The translations under genes were made by a program, and so were the position numbers. Below, piece after piece: positions 1 through 8,987 of a DNA stretch of 8,987 nt; position 1 is the first letter of the stretch, and each line of letters opens with the position of its first letter. The notes under the pieces were generated by a model that saw only the letters and a program-made list of their open reading frames with translations, was not told where the DNA came from and searched no databases. Source of the stretch: a virus (lineage: Duplodnaviria; Heunggongvirae; Uroviricota; Caudoviricetes); the IMG/VR virus record IMGVR_UViG_2734482784_000003; one strand, written 5' to 3'.

Positions 1-981
1 TTATAACGTCACTCCGCCTTTTAGTGGATTCAGAGCGACGGCATTTTGCAGATAGTCAGGCGCAAGGTGCGCATAGGCCATCGTCTGCTGAATGCTCGCA
101 TGTCCCAGAATCTGTTGCAGTGCGATTATATTGCCCCCATTCATCATGAAATGGCTTGCGAATGTATGCCGCAGGATGTGGGTTGCCTGATTGGGTGGTA
201 TATCAGGTTTCACTCTGCGTAAAATCCCGCAAAATTTCTCATAATCAACTTTGAATAATTTGGCGCTGGCCTCCTCTTTAACTTTTTTCTCCAGTTCCTC
301 AGAAATCGGCACGGTTCGCTTTTTACCGTTTTTGGTTTTCAGGAAGGTAACCCTGCAATTTGTAATCTGTGCTGGTTTTAGCGTGGCAACTTCCGTCCAT
401 CTTCCTCCAGTGCTCAGACATAAAAGCGCGACAAGTAAGTCATCACCAGCCAAAACATTTAACAGTTTTTCGATTTCTGCTTTTTCCAGGAACGTCATTT
501 CAGGGTTGGCCTCCGCCAGTGGCGGCAGTCCGTGAATTGGGTGTTGCCCGGAAAATTCATCCAATTGAATTAATTTTGTGAACATGCCGGATAATCGGTA
601 CATGTCACGGTTTATCGTTGCGGCACTGATACCATCACGTAGTCGCATGGAACGATAATCCATCAAAGCCCTTTTGCTCATCCTGCTCACTGGTATATCA
701 CCTATGCCGCTGATGGTTTTGAGTAGATGATTAAACTCTTTTGTTCCATGCTCGTGGTTTTGCCCGTGATATTTCCACCAGATGTCCAGCAACTCACTCA
801 AAGTCCGGCGGTCTGCTCGCTGGCCTCCCCATTCTTTCTGACTGGCATTGGCGATTGTGTATCGCTCAAATGCTAGTGCTTCAGCTTTTCTTTCGAATTT
901 CCTGCGGATGCGTTTTCCGTCGCGACCGCGAGGTCTAATGTCCACTTCATAGCGACCATCATCGAGCTTCTTAATTGCCAT
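1..981 (-). CDS. int: Tyrosine recombinase / phage integrase (P2 Int-like)
   Basis: Minus-strand ORF 1..1011. The protein from the second Met reads MAIKKLDDGRYEVDIRPRGRDGKRIRRKF, which matches my recollection of P2-family Int N-termini. The C-terminus carries a tyrosine-recombinase signature (HILRHTFASH ... LGH ... Y). Start placed at the ATG at 979-981 because a GGAGGG Shine-Dalgarno lies about 8 nt upstream on the minus strand; the ATG at 1009-1011 has no SD. The stop codon is bases 1-3. Confidence 0.9.
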   Translation of the reverse strand: MAIKKLDDGRYEVDIRPRGRDGKRIRRKFERKAEALAFERYTIANASQKEWGGQRADRRTLSELLDIWWKYHGQNHEHGTKEFNHLLKTISGIGDIPVSRMSKRALMDYRSMRLRDGISAATINRDMYRLSGMFTKLIQLDEFSGQHPIHGLPPLAEANPEMTFLEKAEIEKLLNVLAGDDLLVALLCLSTGGRWTEVATLKPAQITNCRVTFLKTKNGKKRTVPISEELEKKVKEEASAKLFKVDYEKFCGILRRVKPDIPPNQATHILRHTFASHFMMNGGNIIALQQILGHASIQQTMAYAHLAPDYLQNAVALNPLKGGVTL

Positions 982-1753: not shown

Positions 1754-1755
1754 TT

Positions 1756-1926
1756 ATGAATGAGCCGCGTTGTATTGCTCAGTTATTGCGTAACGAAAGC
1801 CCCAGGGCGATTGACTTCACCATCACCCACGGGAAGGGACGCAAGGGAATCATTATCCGCACCAAAAAACAGAGTCCGTTAAAAAAGGCTCTGACCTTTC
1901 TGAAAAGCCGGAGGGTCTGGAAATGA
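1756..1926 (+). CDS. Small basic hypothetical protein (same position as P2 orf78)
   Basis: ORF 1729..1926. The ATG at 1756 lies 2 nt after the cox stop (TGA 1751-1753) with a GGGG stretch upstream, suggesting translational coupling; the ATG at 1729 is an alternative start. Its stop overlaps the B start (ATGA at 1923-1926). Function unknown. Confidence 0.5.
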   Translation: MNEPRCIAQLLRNESPRAIDFTITHGKGRKGIIIRTKKQSPLKKALTFLKSRRVWK

Positions 1927-2423
1927 CAGTGATGACGCTCAATCTCGTTGAAAAACAGCCAGCAGCTATGCGCCGGATAATTGGCAAGCATCTTGCCGTC
2001 CCTCGCTGGCAGGATACATGTGATTATTATAATCAGATGATGGAACGCGAACGGCTAACGGTTTGCTTCCATGCGCAGTTAAAACAGCGTCACGCAACGA
2101 TGCGTTTTGAAGAAATGAACGACGTCGAACGTGAACGGCTGGTTTGTGCAATTGATGAATTGCGTGGGGCATTCTCAAAACGCCGTCAGGTTGGCGCAAG
2201 TGAGTATGCATATATTAGTTTTTTAACAGTCAGTCAGCGTCGTACTTTATTTATGCATGCCGGATTGACTGAAAAAGAATTCAACCAGCCATACTGGCGA
2301 ATTAATGAAGAATCATGTTACTGGCGTGATGCTTTATTCCGTGCATTACGTGAATTATTCAGCCTGTTTGAGTATGCACCGACAATTCTGACGTCGGTAA
2401 AACCAGAGCAATATCTGCATTAA
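1923..2423 (+). CDS. B: Replication protein B-like (P2 gpB, DnaB-helicase-loader-type accessory replication protein)
   Basis: 166-aa ORF with a GAGGG Shine-Dalgarno 7 nt upstream of the ATG. Its position after cox/orf78 and its length (P2 gpB is 166 aa as I recall) fit P2 B. The identification rests on synteny and size, not a verified alignment. Confidence 0.7.
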   Translation: MTVMTLNLVEKQPAAMRRIIGKHLAVPRWQDTCDYYNQMMERERLTVCFHAQLKQRHATMRFEEMNDVERERLVCAIDELRGAFSKRRQVGASEYAYISFLTVSQRRTLFMHAGLTEKEFNQPYWRINEESCYWRDALFRALRELFSLFEYAPTILTSVKPEQYLH

Positions 2424-2444
2424 ATAATTAACCAGAGTTTTTAA

Positions 2445-2472
2445 CGCACTTAATCGTGCGGGGCTTCTTTTT
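2445..2472 (+). terminator. Weak candidate intrinsic terminator / attenuator after B
   Basis: A 5-bp stem CGCAC(2445-2449)/GTGCG(2456-2460) with a 6-nt loop, followed by GGGCTTCTTTTT. The stem is short, so this is at most a partial terminator. Confidence 0.2.
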
Positions 2473-2486
2473 GCCTGGAGAAAGTC

Positions 2487-2711
2487 ATGCATACAGTTTC
2501 TGAAAACAAGTGCGGTAAATACGCATTACTGCTGCAACAGGCCAGAGCCGAAGCACAGGCCGACGCAGCGACACGCTTTTCTTCTCATCTTGACGCCATG
2601 ATTCGCCATATCACAAAGGCGGAGTTATCCCGCGTGGAGATAGTCGAGCTGCTCAGTCAGGAGTCGGAAAAATTTCACAATATCGGATTGTCTCGCGGGG
2701 AGGTGCTTTGA
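2487..2711 (+). CDS. Hypothetical early-operon protein (P2 orf80 position)
   Basis: 74-aa ORF with a GGAG Shine-Dalgarno 6 nt upstream. Its stop TGA overlaps the next gene's ATG (TGATG at 2709-2713). Codon usage is consistent with the neighbouring phage genes. Confidence 0.7.
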
Positions 2712-3010
2712 TGTCCTGTTCTCATTCAGTTGTATTACTGAATAACGCCTTAAAAATCGCCGTTATGAAAAATGGCGATTTGTCTCTTATTCAACTTTGC
2801 CTTGATAAAGAAAAACGCGACATAACTGAATCTGTTATCGCGATTTATCAGAATGAATTAAACCTCCTGTCTGATGTGGTCAATTTACTTGTTAAACGCG
2901 CTGTATTCCACAAGCAAATTTCCTCAGTGGATGAACTGACAAAATTAACGACAGAACTTGCCAGTTATTGCGCTGATGTATCCAGGCAACTTAACGATAA
3001 AAGGAGCTGA
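2711..3010 (+). CDS. Hypothetical early-operon protein (P2 orf81 position)
   Basis: The track ORF 2708..3010 begins at a TTG; the first ATG is at 2711, with a GGAGG Shine-Dalgarno 7 nt upstream and coupled to the previous stop. About 99 aa. Confidence 0.7.
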   Translation: MSCSHSVVLLNNALKIAVMKNGDLSLIQLCLDKEKRDITESVIAIYQNELNLLSDVVNLLVKRAVFHKQISSVDELTKLTTELASYCADVSRQLNDKRS

Positions 3011-3012
3011 TA

Positions 3013-3237
3013 ATGCCGGACAACGTAGATTTTATTCAGGAACAACAGGCTGAATTACTGGAGCGCCAGATTAACGCGGCAAGGGTAAAACATTGCGGTG
3101 CTTCTGCGCTGGTTTGCGAAGAGTGTGACGCGCCAATACCTGCAGCCCGTCGTGCGGCTTACCCGTCAGCCACGCGTTGTGTTTCCTGTCAGTCAGTCTT
3201 TGAAGCAAAAAACAAACATTACCGGAGAACGGCATGA
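3013..3237 (+). CDS. TraR/DksA-family C4 zinc-finger protein (P2 orf82 position)
   Basis: 74-aa ORF with an AAGGAG Shine-Dalgarno 6 nt upstream. The protein has CxxC-(17 residues)-CxxC (CEEC…CVSC) in a DksA/TraR-like context. Confidence 0.8.
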   Translation: MPDNVDFIQEQQAELLERQINAARVKHCGASALVCEECDAPIPAARRAAYPSATRCVSCQSVFEAKNKHYRRTA

Positions 3238-3509
3238 GTATTCGTATTGAAATTGGCGAACGTTATGTCGTTACCAGTGACAGCTTTCAGTTTATTCTCC
3301 ACGAGAAAAAGAGAGCGGAAAGCGGTAAAAACGCCGGTCAGGAATGGCTGGCGGTGGTTGGTTATTATCCGAAATTAAGCCAGCTCGTTTCCGGCCTGAT
3401 GCATCACGATATTCTGACCGGAAGCGCAAAGTCTTTTGCTGATTTAAACGCGCAGGTTGAGCAACTCAGCAAGCGTTGTTCAGAGGCTTTTGGCTCATAT
3501 GGCCGTTAA
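3234..3509 (+). CDS. Hypothetical early-operon protein (P2 orf83 position)
   Basis: 91-aa ORF. Its ATG overlaps the previous stop (ATGA at 3234-3237); GGAG upstream. Its 3' end overlaps the start of A by 11 nt. Confidence 0.7.
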   Translation: MSIRIEIGERYVVTSDSFQFILHEKKRAESGKNAGQEWLAVVGYYPKLSQLVSGLMHHDILTGSAKSFADLNAQVEQLSKRCSEAFGSYGR

Positions 3510-5778
3510 AGCCTCCGGGCGTTTTGTCCCTCCGTCAGCATTTTCCGCAGGCACCGGTAAGACGTTTGCCGGTGCTTATGCATGGAACGCGCCACGTGAG
3601 GCTGTCGGGCGCGAAAGACCCCTTACACGTGACGAGATGCGTCAGGTGCAAGGTGTTTTATCCACGATTAACCGCCTGCCTTACTTTTTGCGCTCGCTGT
3701 TTACTTCACGCTATGACTACATCCGGCGCAATAAAAGCCCGGTGCACGGGTTTTATTTCCTCATATCCACTTTTCAGCGTCGTTTATGGCCGCGCATTGA
3801 GCGTGTGAATCAGCGCCATGAAATGAACACCGAAGCGTCGATGCTGTTTCTGGCTGAGCGTGACCACTATGCGCGTCTGCCGGGGATGAATGACAAGGAG
3901 CTGAAAAAGTTTGCCGCCCGTATCTCATCGCAGCTTTTCATGATGTATGAGGAACTCTGCGATGCCTGGGTGGATGCGCATGGCGAAAAAGAATCGCTGT
4001 TTACGGATGAGGCGCAGGCGCATCTGTATGGTCATGTTGCTGGCGCTGCACGTGCTTTCAATATTTCCCCGCTTTACTGGAAAAAATACCGTAAAGGACA
4101 GATGACCACGAGGCAGGCATATTCTGCCATTGCCCGTCTGTTTAACGATGAGTGGTGGACTCATCAGCTTAAAGGCCAGCGTATGCGCTGGCATGAAGCG
4201 TTACTGATAGCTGTCGGGGAGGTCAATAAAGACCGTTCTCCTTATGCCAGTAAACACGCCATTCGTGATGTGCGTGCGCGCCGCCAGGCAAATCTGGAAT
4301 TTCTTAAATCGTGTGACCTTGAAAACAGGGAAACCGGCGAGCGCATCGACCTTATCAGTAAGGTGATGGGCAGTATTTCTAATCCTGAAATTCGCCGGAT
4401 GGAGCTGATGAACACCATTGACGGTATTGAGCGTTACGCCGCCGCAGAGGGTGATGTGGGGATGTTTATCACGCTGACCGCGCCGTCAAAGTATCACCCG
4501 ACACGTCAGGTCGGAAAAGGCGAAAGTAAAACCGTCCAGCTTAATCACGGCTGGAATGATGAGGCATTTAATCCAAAGGATGCGCAGCGTTATCTCTGCC
4601 GTATCTGGAGCCTGATGCGCACGGCATTCAAGGATAATGATTTACAGGCCTACGGTTTGCGTGTCGTTGAGCCACACCACGACGGAACGCCGCACTGGCA
4701 TATGATGCTTTTTTGTAATCCACGCCAGCGTAACCAGATTATTGAAATCATGCGTCGCTATGCGCTCAAAGAGGATGGCGACGAAAGAGGAGCCGCGCGA
4801 AACCGTTTTCAGGCAAAACACCTTAACCGGGGCGGTGCTGCGGGGTATATCGCGAAATACATCTCAAAAAACATCGATGGCTATGCACTGGATGGTCAGC
4901 TCGATAACGATACCGGCAGACCGCTGAAAGACACTGCTGCGGCTGTTACCGCATGGGCGTCAACGTGGCGCATCCCACAATTTAAAACGGTTGGTCTGCC
5001 GACAATGGGGGCTTACCGTGAACTACGCAAATTGCCTCGCGGCGTCAGCATTGCTGATGAGTTTGACGAGCGCGTCGAGGCTGCACGCGCCGCCGCAGAC
5101 AGTGGTGATTTTGCGTTGTATATCAGCGCGCAGGGTGGGGCAAATGTCCCGCGCGATTGTCAGACTGTCAGGGTCGCCCGTAGTCCGTCGGATGAAGTTA
5201 ACGAGTACGAGGAAGAAGTCGAGAGAGTGGTCGGCATTTACGCGCCGCATCTCGGCGCGCGTCATATTCATATCACCAGAACGACGGACTGGCGCATTGT
5301 GCCGAAAGTTCCGGTCGTGGAGCCTTTGACTTTAAAAAGCGGCATCGCCGCGCCTCGGAGTCCTGTCAATAACTGTGGAAAGCTCACCGGTGGTGATACT
5401 TCGTTACCGGCTCCCACACCTTCTGAGCACGCCGCAGCAGTGCTAAATCTGGTTGATGACGGTGTTATCGAATGGAATGACCCGGAGGTCGTGAGGGCGC
5501 TCAGGGGTGCATTAAAACACGGTCGGAGAACGCCAAGTCGTCAGCAAAGAAACGGAAGCCCGTTAAAACCACATGAAATTGCACCATCGGCCAGACTGAC
5601 CCGGTCTGAACGATTGCAAATCACCCGTATCCGTGTTGACCTTGCTCAAAACGGTATCAGGCCGCAGCGATGGGAGCTTGAGGCGTTAGTACGCGGTGCG
5701 ATCGTCAATTACAATGAAAAGCAATTTTCATATCCTAGTGTAGATGAGTGGAGTGGGTTTTCTGGTTATTCAGAGTAA
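3499..5778 (+). CDS. A: Replication initiation protein A (rolling-circle HUH endonuclease, P2 gpA-like)
   Basis: The track ORF 3457..5778 starts at a TTG; the first ATG at 3499 gives MAVKASGRFVPPSAF…, which matches the P2 gpA N-terminus as I recall it (about 760 aa). HUH motif HWH at 4693-4701 (…PHHDGTPHWHMMLF…) and a YxxKYxxK catalytic-tyrosine motif at 4846-4869 (YIAKYISK) support a rolling-circle initiator. Confidence 0.9.
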   Translation: MAVKASGRFVPPSAFSAGTGKTFAGAYAWNAPREAVGRERPLTRDEMRQVQGVLSTINRLPYFLRSLFTSRYDYIRRNKSPVHGFYFLISTFQRRLWPRIERVNQRHEMNTEASMLFLAERDHYARLPGMNDKELKKFAARISSQLFMMYEELCDAWVDAHGEKESLFTDEAQAHLYGHVAGAARAFNISPLYWKKYRKGQMTTRQAYSAIARLFNDEWWTHQLKGQRMRWHEALLIAVGEVNKDRSPYASKHAIRDVRARRQANLEFLKSCDLENRETGERIDLISKVMGSISNPEIRRMELMNTIDGIERYAAAEGDVGMFITLTAPSKYHPTRQVGKGESKTVQLNHGWNDEAFNPKDAQRYLCRIWSLMRTAFKDNDLQAYGLRVVEPHHDGTPHWHMMLFCNPRQRNQIIEIMRRYALKEDGDERGAARNRFQAKHLNRGGAAGYIAKYISKNIDGYALDGQLDNDTGRPLKDTAAAVTAWASTWRIPQFKTVGLPTMGAYRELRKLPRGVSIADEFDERVEAARAAADSGDFALYISAQGGANVPRDCQTVRVARSPSDEVNEYEEEVERVVGIYAPHLGARHIHITRTTDWRIVPKVPVVEPLTLKSGIAAPRSPVNNCGKLTGGDTSLPAPTPSEHAAAVLNLVDDGVIEWNDPEVVRALRGALKHGRRTPSRQQRNGSPLKPHEIAPSARLTRSERLQITRIRVDLAQNGIRPQRWELEALVRGAIVNYNEKQFSYPSVDEWSGFSGYSE

Positions 5779-6017: not shown

Positions 6018-8501
6018 TTAACGAGGGTTTCGCGTATAGGTTTCAACTATGTCTGATGCACGTAATTTACATGTGATCAATTGTTCTCTTATAAATATCT
6101 CATCGTGTCGTTTATCACTTGTACAAATGGCCGTGATAAAACTGAGGATAGATGCTTTAAAACGTTCAAGATCATTTATGGTCATTATTCGAGACCCTTC
6201 GTTTAGTGTTGCGGCATATTCAGGCATGTTAGAGTGATGTATCATTATAGGTGTGGCGGTAGCAGTTTGATCATACATGTTTCTGAACCATGCACCCGAC
6301 CCATTTAACTGATTGCAGTCATGCTTACTTATTCTTTCTGCGGTTGCTCCATTTTTGCATTCAATTACTAGATAATTGTTTTCTCCCATTGCCCATAAAT
6401 TGTCAGGTCCTTTACCTGTATCATTTTCTGGCCGTTGGCTACGAAAACCGATCAAATATGCAACTTTTTCGATAGCATCTTCGAAGGGATTCGATGTGCC
6501 CTCGGAGAAAATAAGGTTTTCTATTATTGAATTAGTATGCACAACGACTTGATTCGCCGATTCAAAATTACTTCTGAGATAGGAGCTACATTCCCTGGCC
6601 TGTTCAAGTGCCGCACCATTAAGTCTATTATATGTTACGCCGATTAGTGGTTTTAATACCCGATAGTTATCGTTTGATGCAGACTGAAGCAATATCTGAG
6701 CTTCAGATTTGTCATATAAGTTTACATATTCCGCAGCATGTTCTTTTAGATAACCCTTATAAACTTTGTCAGCTGTACTACTATCATTTTTTAGAGTTAA
6801 AGCGGCTTGTTGAAACATATTTCGTGATGCGAAGTCATATGCCAATCTTTTGTTTATAGTATGCTGGTCAATCTGCTTATTTTCCAATGTTAAGCCAGTC
6901 AATATACCTTTGCTTTTTGAGACCCAGTCAGAATTGCGTAACAGACAATAATCAAGAGCACCTTTGATTGAATCAATAGTTGTATCCGGCAGTATCGATA
7001 CCAATTGCTGTGAAAGTTGAATTTGTGCTTTCGTTGCTGGAGAAAACCTTTCTAAGGAGGAGCCAAGGAAAACAGCGCCATTTAATGCTTTGCCAAGTAA
7101 GATCACTCCGCAGAAGTCGTCGCTTGATCTCACTCCTCGCCCCATTCCTTGTTCAATTTTCTGGATAATTTCATCTTTGGTTTTTTCGCTTCCAAGCAAT
7201 AAGCTTTGTGAGACTTTATCTATTAGTCTACGAACGTCAGGAAGTCCATCTATTACTAATAGACGACATGCGGTATTTGGTAAATCAATACCATCATATC
7301 TATTAACTAGGACTACTAAGCCAACATGTTGTGTCCTTAATTCTTGTACACCTTGATAAATTGTATTTTTATCTAATATTCTGTCTGCAACATCTTGCCA
7401 AAATCTAGTTCTGTAATCGGATGGTACAATTACAACAACATTATGTTTGGAGGATATCTCCTTGCACATAGCTTTGATATCTACATCAGAAAGACTAGGG
7501 TTTATAACCTGAGGCATTAGTATCATTCTATCACCAATATCACCAATTGTTTTTGGTGTTATCGGATTAGAGAGTGATTCATCCGTTATTCCGAAGTGGC
7601 TCGCTAGAATGGATTCATCGACAAGAGTAGCTGTCATGAATATTTTTCTTCTTGCGTTTGATAGGCTTGGGATCATTTGGATTGGTATGCAATGAGGTGA
7701 TATCTCTATTTTGGAAGCACTTACAACGCATTTCGATAATATTAGATTGTCTTTTATTAATGGCCATTTGAAACTCAAGTCATCATGGTCTTTATTTTCT
7801 AACAAGATTGTCATTATATCATTTATGCTTTCTTGCCATTTCCAAAATGGAACTCTCACATAAGCATTTCTATCGCCGGATTTTATCTCTAGTGTTTTTG
7901 CACCAGCTTGTGTCATTAGTGAATTTTCAAAAATTCTGAATAATTTATCATAGGCAGGGTTATTTTTTTGAATGCTAATGGAGAATTGTTCTTCAATTGA
8001 AGAAAGGCAAGCGTGAGCATCGTCAATTATTATAGAACCTATTGGTATTTTTTGTCCATCATCTCCAACGCCAAATGCAGAACGTCCATTAACCACTTTG
8101 AATATATTTGTAACTAAAATTTCTTTACCTGCAATAAATTTGGGGGACCTCTCATCTTGAGTTACAGGTATACCAAGTTGATTAGCCTCCAAAACCACTT
8201 GCTCAACTAGATAGTTGTCAGGAACAACATATACAGCGGGACCTTCTCCTTCATTTATACAGCTTTTAAGAATGATTAACCCAACTGAAGTTTTACCGCT
8301 TCCGGTATTCATTTTTATTACATTGGTTGGGCTTCTCCTTGCTTCATACCATTTTTCCCAGACCTCTGATTGCACATCTCGAGGGTATTGAAATTTGGTG
8401 TCTTTGCTCGGTAGAGCTGTAAATATATCTCGCGGTGGAATCGCTGTGTCGCTATTTACACTGGGCGAAAGCTTGGTTAAATCAAGGAAAAAACCAGACA
8501 T
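6018..8501 (-). CDS. Large SF2 helicase with C-terminal PD-(D/E)xK-like nuclease motif; candidate single-gene anti-phage defence protein in the P2 A-to-cos cargo hotspot
   Basis: 827-aa uninterrupted minus-strand ORF. AGAGGA Shine-Dalgarno 6 nt upstream of the ATG (8499-8501), with an in-frame stop two codons further upstream fixing the start. Motifs read directly: Walker A GSGKT (aa 67-71, nt 8289-8303), motif II IIIDDAH (DDAH at nt 8013-8024), motif III MTAT (nt about 7626-7634), motif VI QGMGRGVR (nt about 7128-7151), and C-terminal GPD…(13 aa)…IECK (D700, E714, K716; nt 6354-6407). The gene is markedly AT-rich: hand counts on a few 60-nt lines give roughly 28-38% G+C, against about 60% in one line of A. 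Confidence 0.85.
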   Translation of the reverse strand: MSGFFLDLTKLSPSVNSDTAIPPRDIFTALPSKDTKFQYPRDVQSEVWEKWYEARRSPTNVIKMNTGSGKTSVGLIILKSCINEGEGPAVYVVPDNYLVEQVVLEANQLGIPVTQDERSPKFIAGKEILVTNIFKVVNGRSAFGVGDDGQKIPIGSIIIDDAHACLSSIEEQFSISIQKNNPAYDKLFRIFENSLMTQAGAKTLEIKSGDRNAYVRVPFWKWQESINDIMTILLENKDHDDLSFKWPLIKDNLILSKCVVSASKIEISPHCIPIQMIPSLSNARRKIFMTATLVDESILASHFGITDESLSNPITPKTIGDIGDRMILMPQVINPSLSDVDIKAMCKEISSKHNVVVIVPSDYRTRFWQDVADRILDKNTIYQGVQELRTQHVGLVVLVNRYDGIDLPNTACRLLVIDGLPDVRRLIDKVSQSLLLGSEKTKDEIIQKIEQGMGRGVRSSDDFCGVILLGKALNGAVFLGSSLERFSPATKAQIQLSQQLVSILPDTTIDSIKGALDYCLLRNSDWVSKSKGILTGLTLENKQIDQHTINKRLAYDFASRNMFQQAALTLKNDSSTADKVYKGYLKEHAAEYVNLYDKSEAQILLQSASNDNYRVLKPLIGVTYNRLNGAALEQARECSSYLRSNFESANQVVVHTNSIIENLIFSEGTSNPFEDAIEKVAYLIGFRSQRPENDTGKGPDNLWAMGENNYLVIECKNGATAERISKHDCNQLNGSGAWFRNMYDQTATATPIMIHHSNMPEYAATLNEGSRIMTINDLERFKASILSFITAICTSDKRHDEIFIREQLITCKLRASDIVETYTRNPR

Positions 8502-8560
8502 TTTTTATCCTCTTACAGGTACATTAGTTTAATTGTTAACGCAGAATTATCATTACCATA

Positions 8561-8590
8561 ACTTGCATTAAGTTGCATTACATTGCATTC
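8561..8590. repeat. Three tandem 10-bp repeats containing TTGCATT (acTTGCATTA / agTTGCATTA / caTTGCATTC)
   Basis: Read directly: TTGCATT begins at 8563, 8573 and 8583, an exact 10-bp periodicity. The repeats lie 60-90 bp upstream of the cargo gene start, in its presumed promoter region, and about 95 bp before cos. Confidence 0.6.
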
Positions 8591-8624
8591 ATAAACGTTA
8601 GCTAGGGGCGAAGTCTGAGGTTTG

Positions 8625-8987
8625 ATGGGCTATGGTGTCCCCTTTAATACGAGGTTGCATCAAAACCGCCCCATGAAGCGGGCGGGCGAGGCGGGGAAAG
8701 CACTGCGCGCTGACGGTGGTGCTGATTTTATTTTTTCAGCGTCTGAGCGCGTCGTGAAGGCGTTTACTTGGCCTGCTGGGGCGTTGGTGTGGCCGGATTT
8801 CCTCGCATGGGATACGGTCACCAGTACCACCGCCACCGCGTATGCCACCGCCCGTGCGCTGGGTCTGCGCGCTAAAATCGACCAGGAGCAGGGCTGGCAT
8901 AAAACGCTGTCCAATGTTCTCCATCAGCCTGGCTACCGGTCGGGCAGATATTTACACGGAAACACCGGTCAAAGTGTCTGGCTTTAA
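8625..8987 (+). CDS. Hypothetical protein (doubtful ORF spanning the cos region)
   Basis: Track ORF 8622..8987 (TTG; first ATG at 8625, GAGG 4 nt upstream); its stop codon is the last 3 bases of the window. Codon usage in the 3' half looks E. coli-like. However, the 5' part overlaps cos and the conserved packaging region, which is non-coding in P2/P4, and in P2 the portal gene Q is expected on the opposite strand here. Low confidence. Confidence 0.3.
   Translation: MGYGVPFNTRLHQNRPMKRAGEAGKALRADGGADFIFSASERVVKAFTWPAGALVWPDFLAWDTVTSTTATAYATARALGLRAKIDQEQGWHKTLSNVLHQPGYRSGRYLHGNTGQSVWL
8685..8703 (+). other. Phage cohesive-end site (cos), P2/P4 type
   Basis: GGCGAGGCGGGGAAAGCAC matches the 19-nt P2/P4 cohesive-end sequence as I remember it. 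The following roughly 50 bp (TGCGCGCTGACGGTGGTGCTGATT.TATTTTTTCAGCGTCT.AGCGCGTCGTGA) also closely matches my recollection of the P2/P4 genome left end. This was not verified by alignment. Confidence 0.6.

Follow-up and report, generated by a model that had tools for sequence, protein, structure and literature searches.

Open reading frame across the cos site of a defective P2-like prophage of Escherichia coli: a probable by-product of late-gene deletion

The 8,987 nt analysed here as one stretch (hereafter the window; IMG/VR record IMGVR_UViG_2734482784_000003) were compared by blastn with phage P2, for which NC_001895 served as reference. The P2 early genes were found in the order int-C-cox-B-...-A, and window 1755-5711 corresponds to P2 26290-30246 with 96.9% identity. 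The leftmost part with int, repressor and cox (1-1753) shows patchy 70-80% nucleotide identity to P2 and no match over C and cox, a divergence which is consistent with another immunity type and another attachment site (cpxP-fieF), as in the intact relative described below. A helicase gene is carried as cargo (Table 1), the cos-adjacent locus between A and Q being a known P2 defence hotspot (bioRxiv 10.1101/2021.01.21.427644). Between this hotspot and the position of the late genes lies a cos site of the P2 type with the exact 19-mer; a 55-bp conserved cos sequence is common to P2 and P4 (PMC2231350; PMC9594776). No counterpart of the complete late block from Q to D was found in the window or in the extended loci. 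At the right end, outside the window, we found ogr and attR in two of the extended loci (L002 and L003), and a direct repeat of 43-47 bp stands at both ends of the element, which measures about 10.4-10.5 kb from attL to attR. None of the Rfam families matched across the 10.5-kb element.

Within the conserved cos block we also noted a G+C-rich inverted repeat, CCGCCC-GCTTCATG-GGGCGG (8666-8685), directly left of the cohesive-end sequence. On the minus strand it is followed by a T run, and by scan it is terminator-like.

Table 1. Features around the cos site of the window, and breakpoints in gene D of the window and of other P2-like remnants. Positions refer to the window unless another element is named, and the fourth column refers to P2 (NC_001895).
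Feature	Position	Strand	P2 position	Identity to P2	Remarks
Cargo helicase, 827 aa, DEAD/ResIII/Helicase_C_2	6018-8501	-			Intact; stands where P2 has old and tin
Chimeric ORF, 120 aa plus stop	8625-8987	+			From translation and P2 mapping
P2-type cos/packaging region	8656-8790	.	33546-33593 plus 1-107		Intact
Cohesive-end sequence, 19 nt, GGCGAGGCGGGGAAAGCAC	8685-8703	.		Exact (cosL/cosR)	Inside the plus-strand ORF
cos-proximal DNA	8685-8790		1-107	88.8% (blastn)	
9-mer GGGGCGTTG	8778-8786		23737-23745		Once in the window, left of J1; once in P2, left of the D breakpoint
Junction J1, GGCGTTGGTGTGGCCGGATTTCCTCG	8790-8791		~107 joined to 18216		cos-proximal DNA joined to FI; 2-bp microhomology TG
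Internal fragment of tail-sheath gene FI, 128 bp, aa 189-231	8790-8917	+	18216-18343	99.2%	
Minus-strand frame, 63 codons	8872-8987 in the window; opens at window-equivalent 9063	-			Antisense to the D and FI fragments
Junction J2, GCTGTCCAATGTTCTCCATCAGCC	8916-8917		18343 joined to 23750		FI joined to D; 2-bp microhomology GT
Start of retained 3' D fragment	8916-8987	+	23750-23821	98.6%	
D breakpoint, L021			23463		
D breakpoint, L019			23485		
D breakpoint, L018			23654		
D breakpoint, L020 (18AR0366)	7664-7666 of L020		23726		
D breakpoint, K-12 PR-X (L010)	NC_000913.3 ~2167811		~23742-47		
D breakpoint, L008	10095-10103 of L008		~23745-48		
D breakpoint, window	8916-8917		23750		
D breakpoint, L016			23884		
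D breakpoint, L017			23917		

The last three bases of the window (8985-8987) are the TAA of a plus-strand ORF. Read from ATG 8625 it has 120 codons and the stop, in agreement with the first-pass annotation, which described an ORF of 121 codons passing through cos to the window edge; read from TTG 8622 it encodes 121 aa. The public gene call on the source contig gives an identical 120-aa product, and the edge of the window was evidently set at the stop codon of this called gene. A second public call, the 104-aa 'hypothetical protein PU58_16355' of GCA_000798535.1, starts at Met17. The G+C content of the ORF stretch is 58%, against 45% for the whole window.

Three pieces of different origin make up the ORF: 55 codons from cos-region DNA, about 43 in-frame codons of FI and 23 codons read from D in another frame. 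The first 55 codons are supplied by a 69-codon frame that is open over cos in intact relatives too. A codon begins at window 8790 in FI and in the ORF alike. The FI piece is translated in its native frame; it reads WPDFLAWDTVTSTTATAYATARALGLRAKIDQEQGWHKTLSN, and ORF residues 56-98 match FI aa 189-231, with identity to P2 checked for aa 189-230. From 8916 the ORF runs through D out of phase, the native D frame running from 8917, and the TAA follows 23 codons on. The length of the ORF is due to ancestry, without selection on the ORF itself, because about 43 codons are real FI frame and the first 55 are open in intact relatives.

The blastn search placed three P2 blocks to the right of cos, and these abut one another. 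In a megablast against 50,697 phage records, the part of the query spanning window 8790-8917 matched the 'tail sheath protein FI' of P2-like phages, and no record covered at least 80% of the query in one place. The deletion at J1 corresponds to P2 108-18215 and takes away Q, P, O, N, M, L, X, Y, K, lysABC, R, S, V, W, J, I, H, G, fun(Z) and the 5' part of FI. The deletion at J2 corresponds to P2 18344-23749 and removes the 3' part of FI, FII, E, E', T, U and the 5' 82% of D. Altogether about 23.5 kb (P2 108-23749) were lost to the right of cos, save the small FI piece. In the extended loci P2 23750-24288 continues unbroken, comprising the 3' end of D and ogr with its terminator, and is followed by a 213-aa ORF and attR. 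One of the two readings put forward in the first-pass annotation was that Q is absent or rearranged and that a different gene follows cos, a case that would add another change to the prophage. Q is indeed absent, and its loss by the two deletions is such a change, but what follows cos is a 128-bp fragment of FI and the end of D.

The exact 120-aa product was found on 6 contigs. Both junctions occur, with 0-2 mismatches, in two NCBI E. coli assemblies and in three Logan assemblies; the window is 100% identical to positions 151-9137 of one of the latter (L003, from SRR31030571), and the contigs with the element differ by 0-2 mismatches over 6-10 kb. The junctions might in principle be assembly artefacts, that is, a chimeric contig of a normal prophage, and there is something to be said for this, as the source contig terminates in att repeats and both junctions were absent from the 50,697 phage records and from 5,426 complete E. 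coli genomes, J2 also from the species-representative genomes and IMG/VR, and J1 from the JGI metagenome contigs. Yet the two junctions are shared by at least five assemblies from different samples and pipelines, and in two NCBI isolate assemblies the element lies within host DNA. In GCA_946061845.2 (L002) the order is cpxR-cpxP, element, fieF-pfkA-sbp-cdh-tpiA, and in GCA_000798535.1 (L009) the element is likewise followed by fieF-pfkA. Since independent assemblies show both junctions, with host DNA at the flanks, we rule out an artefact, which we regard as extremely improbable. The exact pair of junctions is thus new, being absent from every collection searched outside the few assemblies; the kind of event is ordinary.

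A single indel distinguishes the window and L003 from three other contigs, namely a T homopolymer at window 5882 in the A-helicase intergenic region (T7 versus T8). This may be a sequencing or assembly difference.

The first-pass annotation had also considered that the plus-strand ORF is antisense to the 3' end of the portal gene Q, which would run past the window on the minus strand. It had pointed out a minus-strand frame which is open from the right edge down to a TAG at 8872-8874, near the expected Q stop, and this observation holds: the TAG sits 187 nt after the start of cos, the P2 Q stop is at P2 187-189, and in the intact relative Q ends 189 nt after cos. The match in position is nevertheless a coincidence, because the TAG lies antisense inside the FI fragment. 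The stretch in question is 99% identical to FI and D, and Q gives no match. A tblastn search with P2 gpQ over the 20-kb extended locus L002 returned chance matches only (E of 0.22 or higher), and the same query recovered a 99% identical Q in the intact relative. Extension of the minus-strand frame, proposed at the time as a check for a portal product, gave 63 codons closing 76 nt beyond the window and nothing resembling a portal protein. With homology mapping, tblastn and the extended frame all against it the portal reading is ruled out, and we see virtually no chance of an antisense Q.

We then asked whether the plus-strand ORF could be a gene. Its sole match in Pfam is Phage_sheath_1 (PF04984), over aa 48-98 with 24.4 bits, under the cut-off of 31.4, and the match spans only positions 84-124 of the 168 in the profile. 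With 43 of 396 FI residues and a score under the Pfam gathering threshold the product cannot be a sheath protein. In a large protein search one identical cluster was found, which is the 104-aa version from Met17. The remaining matches fall into two classes: tail-sheath proteins, aligned over the FI segment only, and calls of 69-89 aa without Pfam domain, aligned over residues 1-56 only. No homologue of the whole ORF lacking the shared junctions was detected in this search, and wherever a match spans the full length it is an identical copy from the same deletion derivative. Conserved homologues elsewhere, together with a short minus-strand frame that is not portal-like, had been expected earlier if the ORF were a plus-strand gene; the minus-strand frame is short and not portal-like, but independent homologues of the ORF were not found.

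The second class of matches is informative about the first 55 codons. In the alignment the block from Met17 to Val44 is invariant, and this block is the cos DNA itself. Upstream of Met17 the N-termini are unrelated among prophages, and the C-termini vary, some of them being frame-shifted. In P2 the position of Met17 is a GTG, and a 1-nt indel follows downstream. The DNA of the intact relative shares the ATG and has a frame of 69 codons with its stop just ahead of the Q terminator. Within the conserved block four sites vary, and at each of them the change would alter the amino acid. On sequence grounds this is the pattern of a conserved DNA signal rather than that of a protein under selection. 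Further, the P2 annotation treats the cos region that holds the first 55 codons as non-coding, and PGAP/RefSeq has no annotation at the position of the ORF among the 30 complete E. coli genomes listed.

It should be noted that in intact P2-like prophages ORFs of 69-89 aa are called repeatedly over cos, and they form many clusters (an example lies at 12066-12275 of L006). The part which they share, MKRAGEAGKALRA.GGADFIFSAS.RVV, is the cos DNA read in one frame, and their ends are variable. These calls are likely to be an artefact of annotation that keeps recurring.

A scan for promoters gave no sigma-70-like site ahead of the ORF. A GAGG stands 4 nt 5' of ATG 8625, and given this motif translation of the ORF would be possible, provided that a transcript reads through. 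One could therefore imagine that a new gene has arisen in the chimeric ORF and is expressed as a small protein with a 43-aa sheath-derived segment, which might for example hinder tail-sheath assembly of superinfecting P2-like phages. The start codon with its GAGG, the fact that gene finders call the ORF, the exact 43-aa FI piece inside it and an in-frame fusion of the cos ORF to the end of D in an independent remnant (L008) all speak in this direction. However, a promoter-like site is missing upstream, the first 55 aa are encoded by DNA kept as a packaging signal and not as a protein, the tail is D out of frame, the sheath fragment stays under the Pfam domain threshold, PADLOC gives no match, and the ORF is confined to a single near-clonal lineage. 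We consider a newborn gene very unlikely. The ORF is most likely a spurious, deletion-made chimera and, as far as can be predicted, no functional gene. It was suspected from the beginning that the ORF might be an annotation artefact, and this is probably so, although as a chimera left by deletion and not for the reason then given. We suggest that the 120-aa or 104-aa 'hypothetical protein' is treated in annotation as a deletion-made pseudo-ORF, and that the label of the locus should name a defective P2-like prophage containing pseudogene fragments of FI and D.

The element could be compared with an intact prophage, that of E. coli WP2-W18-CRE-03 (NZ_AP021914.1), which shares with it the cpxP-fieF site, the att repeat, the 827-aa helicase, the cos variant, ogr and the 213-aa gene. 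The lengths of int, C, cox, B and A are equal in both, and one small DUF5405 gene is one codon shorter in the remnant. The WP2-W18-CRE-03 prophage has a complete late block, with about 31.1 kb between the att repeats, against about 10.4-10.5 kb in the remnant. The two are 98.85% identical from attL to cos, 96.9% over the FI piece and 99.86% from the D fragment to attR; around cos (window 8560-8791) the identity is 99.6%. In the remnant int, C, cox, B, A with ori, the helicase, cos and ogr are all intact, and the loss of the late block looks recent because every retained gene is intact. Virion production by the element is lost.

Taken together we are confident that a P2-like (Peduovirus) prophage lies between cpxP and fieF of E. 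coli, that the window covers its early half, and that almost its whole late block has been lost. This confidence applies to the claim as a whole, namely that the prophage is decayed, that Q is deleted and that the plus-strand ORF is an accidental by-product of the deletion. What the remnant still offers its host would most plausibly be immunity and phage defence.

Because 2-bp microhomology is found at both junctions, we infer that the late block was lost by illegitimate, microhomology-mediated recombination. Two histories could be envisaged. The first would be one complex event, a template switch or end joining in which the 128-nt FI piece was copied in as filler; the second would be two successive deletions, FI::D and then cos::FI. 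The two-deletion history is plausible since FI::D or FII::D deletions arose independently in at least five other E. coli remnants. None of the 5,426 complete E. coli genomes has J1 or J2 alone as a single-junction intermediate, and either history may apply. In either history the open frame of the cos block would have been joined in phase to FI and then out of frame into D, up to the TAA. The 9-mer GGGGCGTTG, which occurs near both breakpoints (Table 1), may have brought the two ends together.

The helicase cargo has a full-length match to the PADLOC candidate system PDC-S28 (1056 bits) and is of equal length in the remnant and the intact relative. Defective P2 elements that keep near-identical defence genes have been reported (bioRxiv 10.64898/2026.02.27.708500), and the present element is a further case of this already described pattern, in which a decayed P2-like prophage keeps its defence cargo, immunity and replication genes and has lost those for the virion.

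The 213-aa ORF lies on the plus strand in the interval between ogr and attR, outside the window (10936-11577 of L002), and the remnant shares it with the intact relative. It has no Pfam domain and matches the C-terminal two thirds of PADLOC PD-T4-10_B with E = 1e-34. The ogr-att end may therefore harbour a second gene for cargo or defence.

A similar architecture was found in L008 (Logan SRR15714226 contig 67, 1-11042), an unrelated P2-like prophage which has independently come to consist of early region, cargo, cos and the 3' part of D onwards. Its integrase and repressor differ from those of the window, it adjoins a radical-SAM gene, and its cargo comprises a 388-aa protein and two Ser/Thr kinase-like proteins. 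In L008 cos and about 90 nt are joined straight to D via GCGG, and the in-frame fusion so formed is 103 aa long (P0117).

Retention of a cos site in an element of this size raises the idea that the remnant would be a helper-dependent, mobilisable 'mini-P2' of P4 size, packaged via cos by a co-infecting P2-like phage. Intact int, cox, B, A/ori, cos and ogr and an attL-attR size of about 10.4-10.5 kb would suit such a life, and so would the architecture shared with the second, unrelated remnant L008. P2 terminase requires closed circular DNA together with the 55-bp cos sequence, and plasmids of 5-10 kb that carry cos go into P4-sized capsids (PMC2231350; PMC9594776). If this were true, a superinfecting P2-like helper could spread the PDC-S28 helicase cargo. 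Any single deletion of the contiguous late block would, however, give the same architecture, and the element has no gene for capsid size or for manipulation of a helper. The copies are near-identical and both host-flanked ones sit at one chromosomal site, which does not support horizontal spread, and the junctions resemble random microhomology events. Mobilisation by a helper therefore seems very unlikely to us.

The likeness to P4 and P4-like satellites is that these, too, are about 10-11 kb long, with an integrase of their own and a P2-type cos beside a defence-gene hotspot. Unlike P4, the remnant would replicate by P2 A/B, and helper manipulation of the sid/psu/delta/epsilon type is absent from the called genes. 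All of these are homologues of P2 early genes, apart from the helicase cargo, ogr and the one 213-aa ORF, and none of them is a P4-type alpha primase-helicase, sid/psu, delta or epsilon gene. Judged from its sequence the element is a deleted P2-like phage without P4 genes, and our verdict is ordinary prophage decay.

Deletions of 4.3-5.5 kb joining FI or FII to D were found in L016 (MS20649), L017 (EC9), L018 (ET881), L019 (3908) and L021 (AS19). Each has microhomology of 2-13 bp, and where FI is the partner it is joined at P2 18406-18687. Like the window, these remnants (FI joined to D in L016-L019, FII to D in L021, which is of the E. coli B type) show a short-microhomology fusion to the 3' part of D and have kept ogr; unlike the window, each has other breakpoints, they retain varying head and tail genes, and the cos::FI junction is absent. 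With the window this makes six cases, and it seems that the F operon is often lost in the decay of P2 prophages.

The D breakpoints of nine independent remnants are given in Table 1. Four of the nine fall within 26 nt (P2 23726-23751), by the inverted repeat GCAACG-GGG-CGTTGC (P2 23732-23746), and the other five are elsewhere in the last 500 nt of D. The left partners of the four clustered breakpoints all differ, being the att core, cos with about 90 nt, FI and Q. P2 23726-23751 may be a deletion hot spot, in a sample that is biased, as the searches were seeded with D and the window and the spread listing covers abundant classes only. A scan of the species-representative genomes for D truncations returned 5 loci, of which 2 are of the K-12 type and 3 have D extending upstream of the K-12 breakpoint. 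The possible clustering would be of modest interest for studies of prophage decay.

Two possible causes of the clustering were rejected. A pseudo-ori in D for gpA, the rolling-circle initiator, agrees with the P2 ori 20-mer in only 12 of 20 bases; P2 contains more than 40 sites with an equal or better match, and shuffled genomes contain about 11 sites matching at 13/20 or better. A pseudo-att site for Int was set aside as a general cause, the core match of 9/14 being weak and the integrases of the three elements differing; the K-12 junction does abut the att core.

Among classical cases the closest is the K-12 cryptic prophage PR-X (yegZ-ogrK, NC_000913.3 2167183-2167811), a P2 remnant which resembles the window element in having kept the 3' end of D, ogr and attR, and its D fragment begins within about 10 nt of that of the window. 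It differs in that all else is lost and D abuts the att core, at the yegR-trhP site with a P2-type att, whereas in the window element the early region is complete and the cargo gene and cos have been kept.
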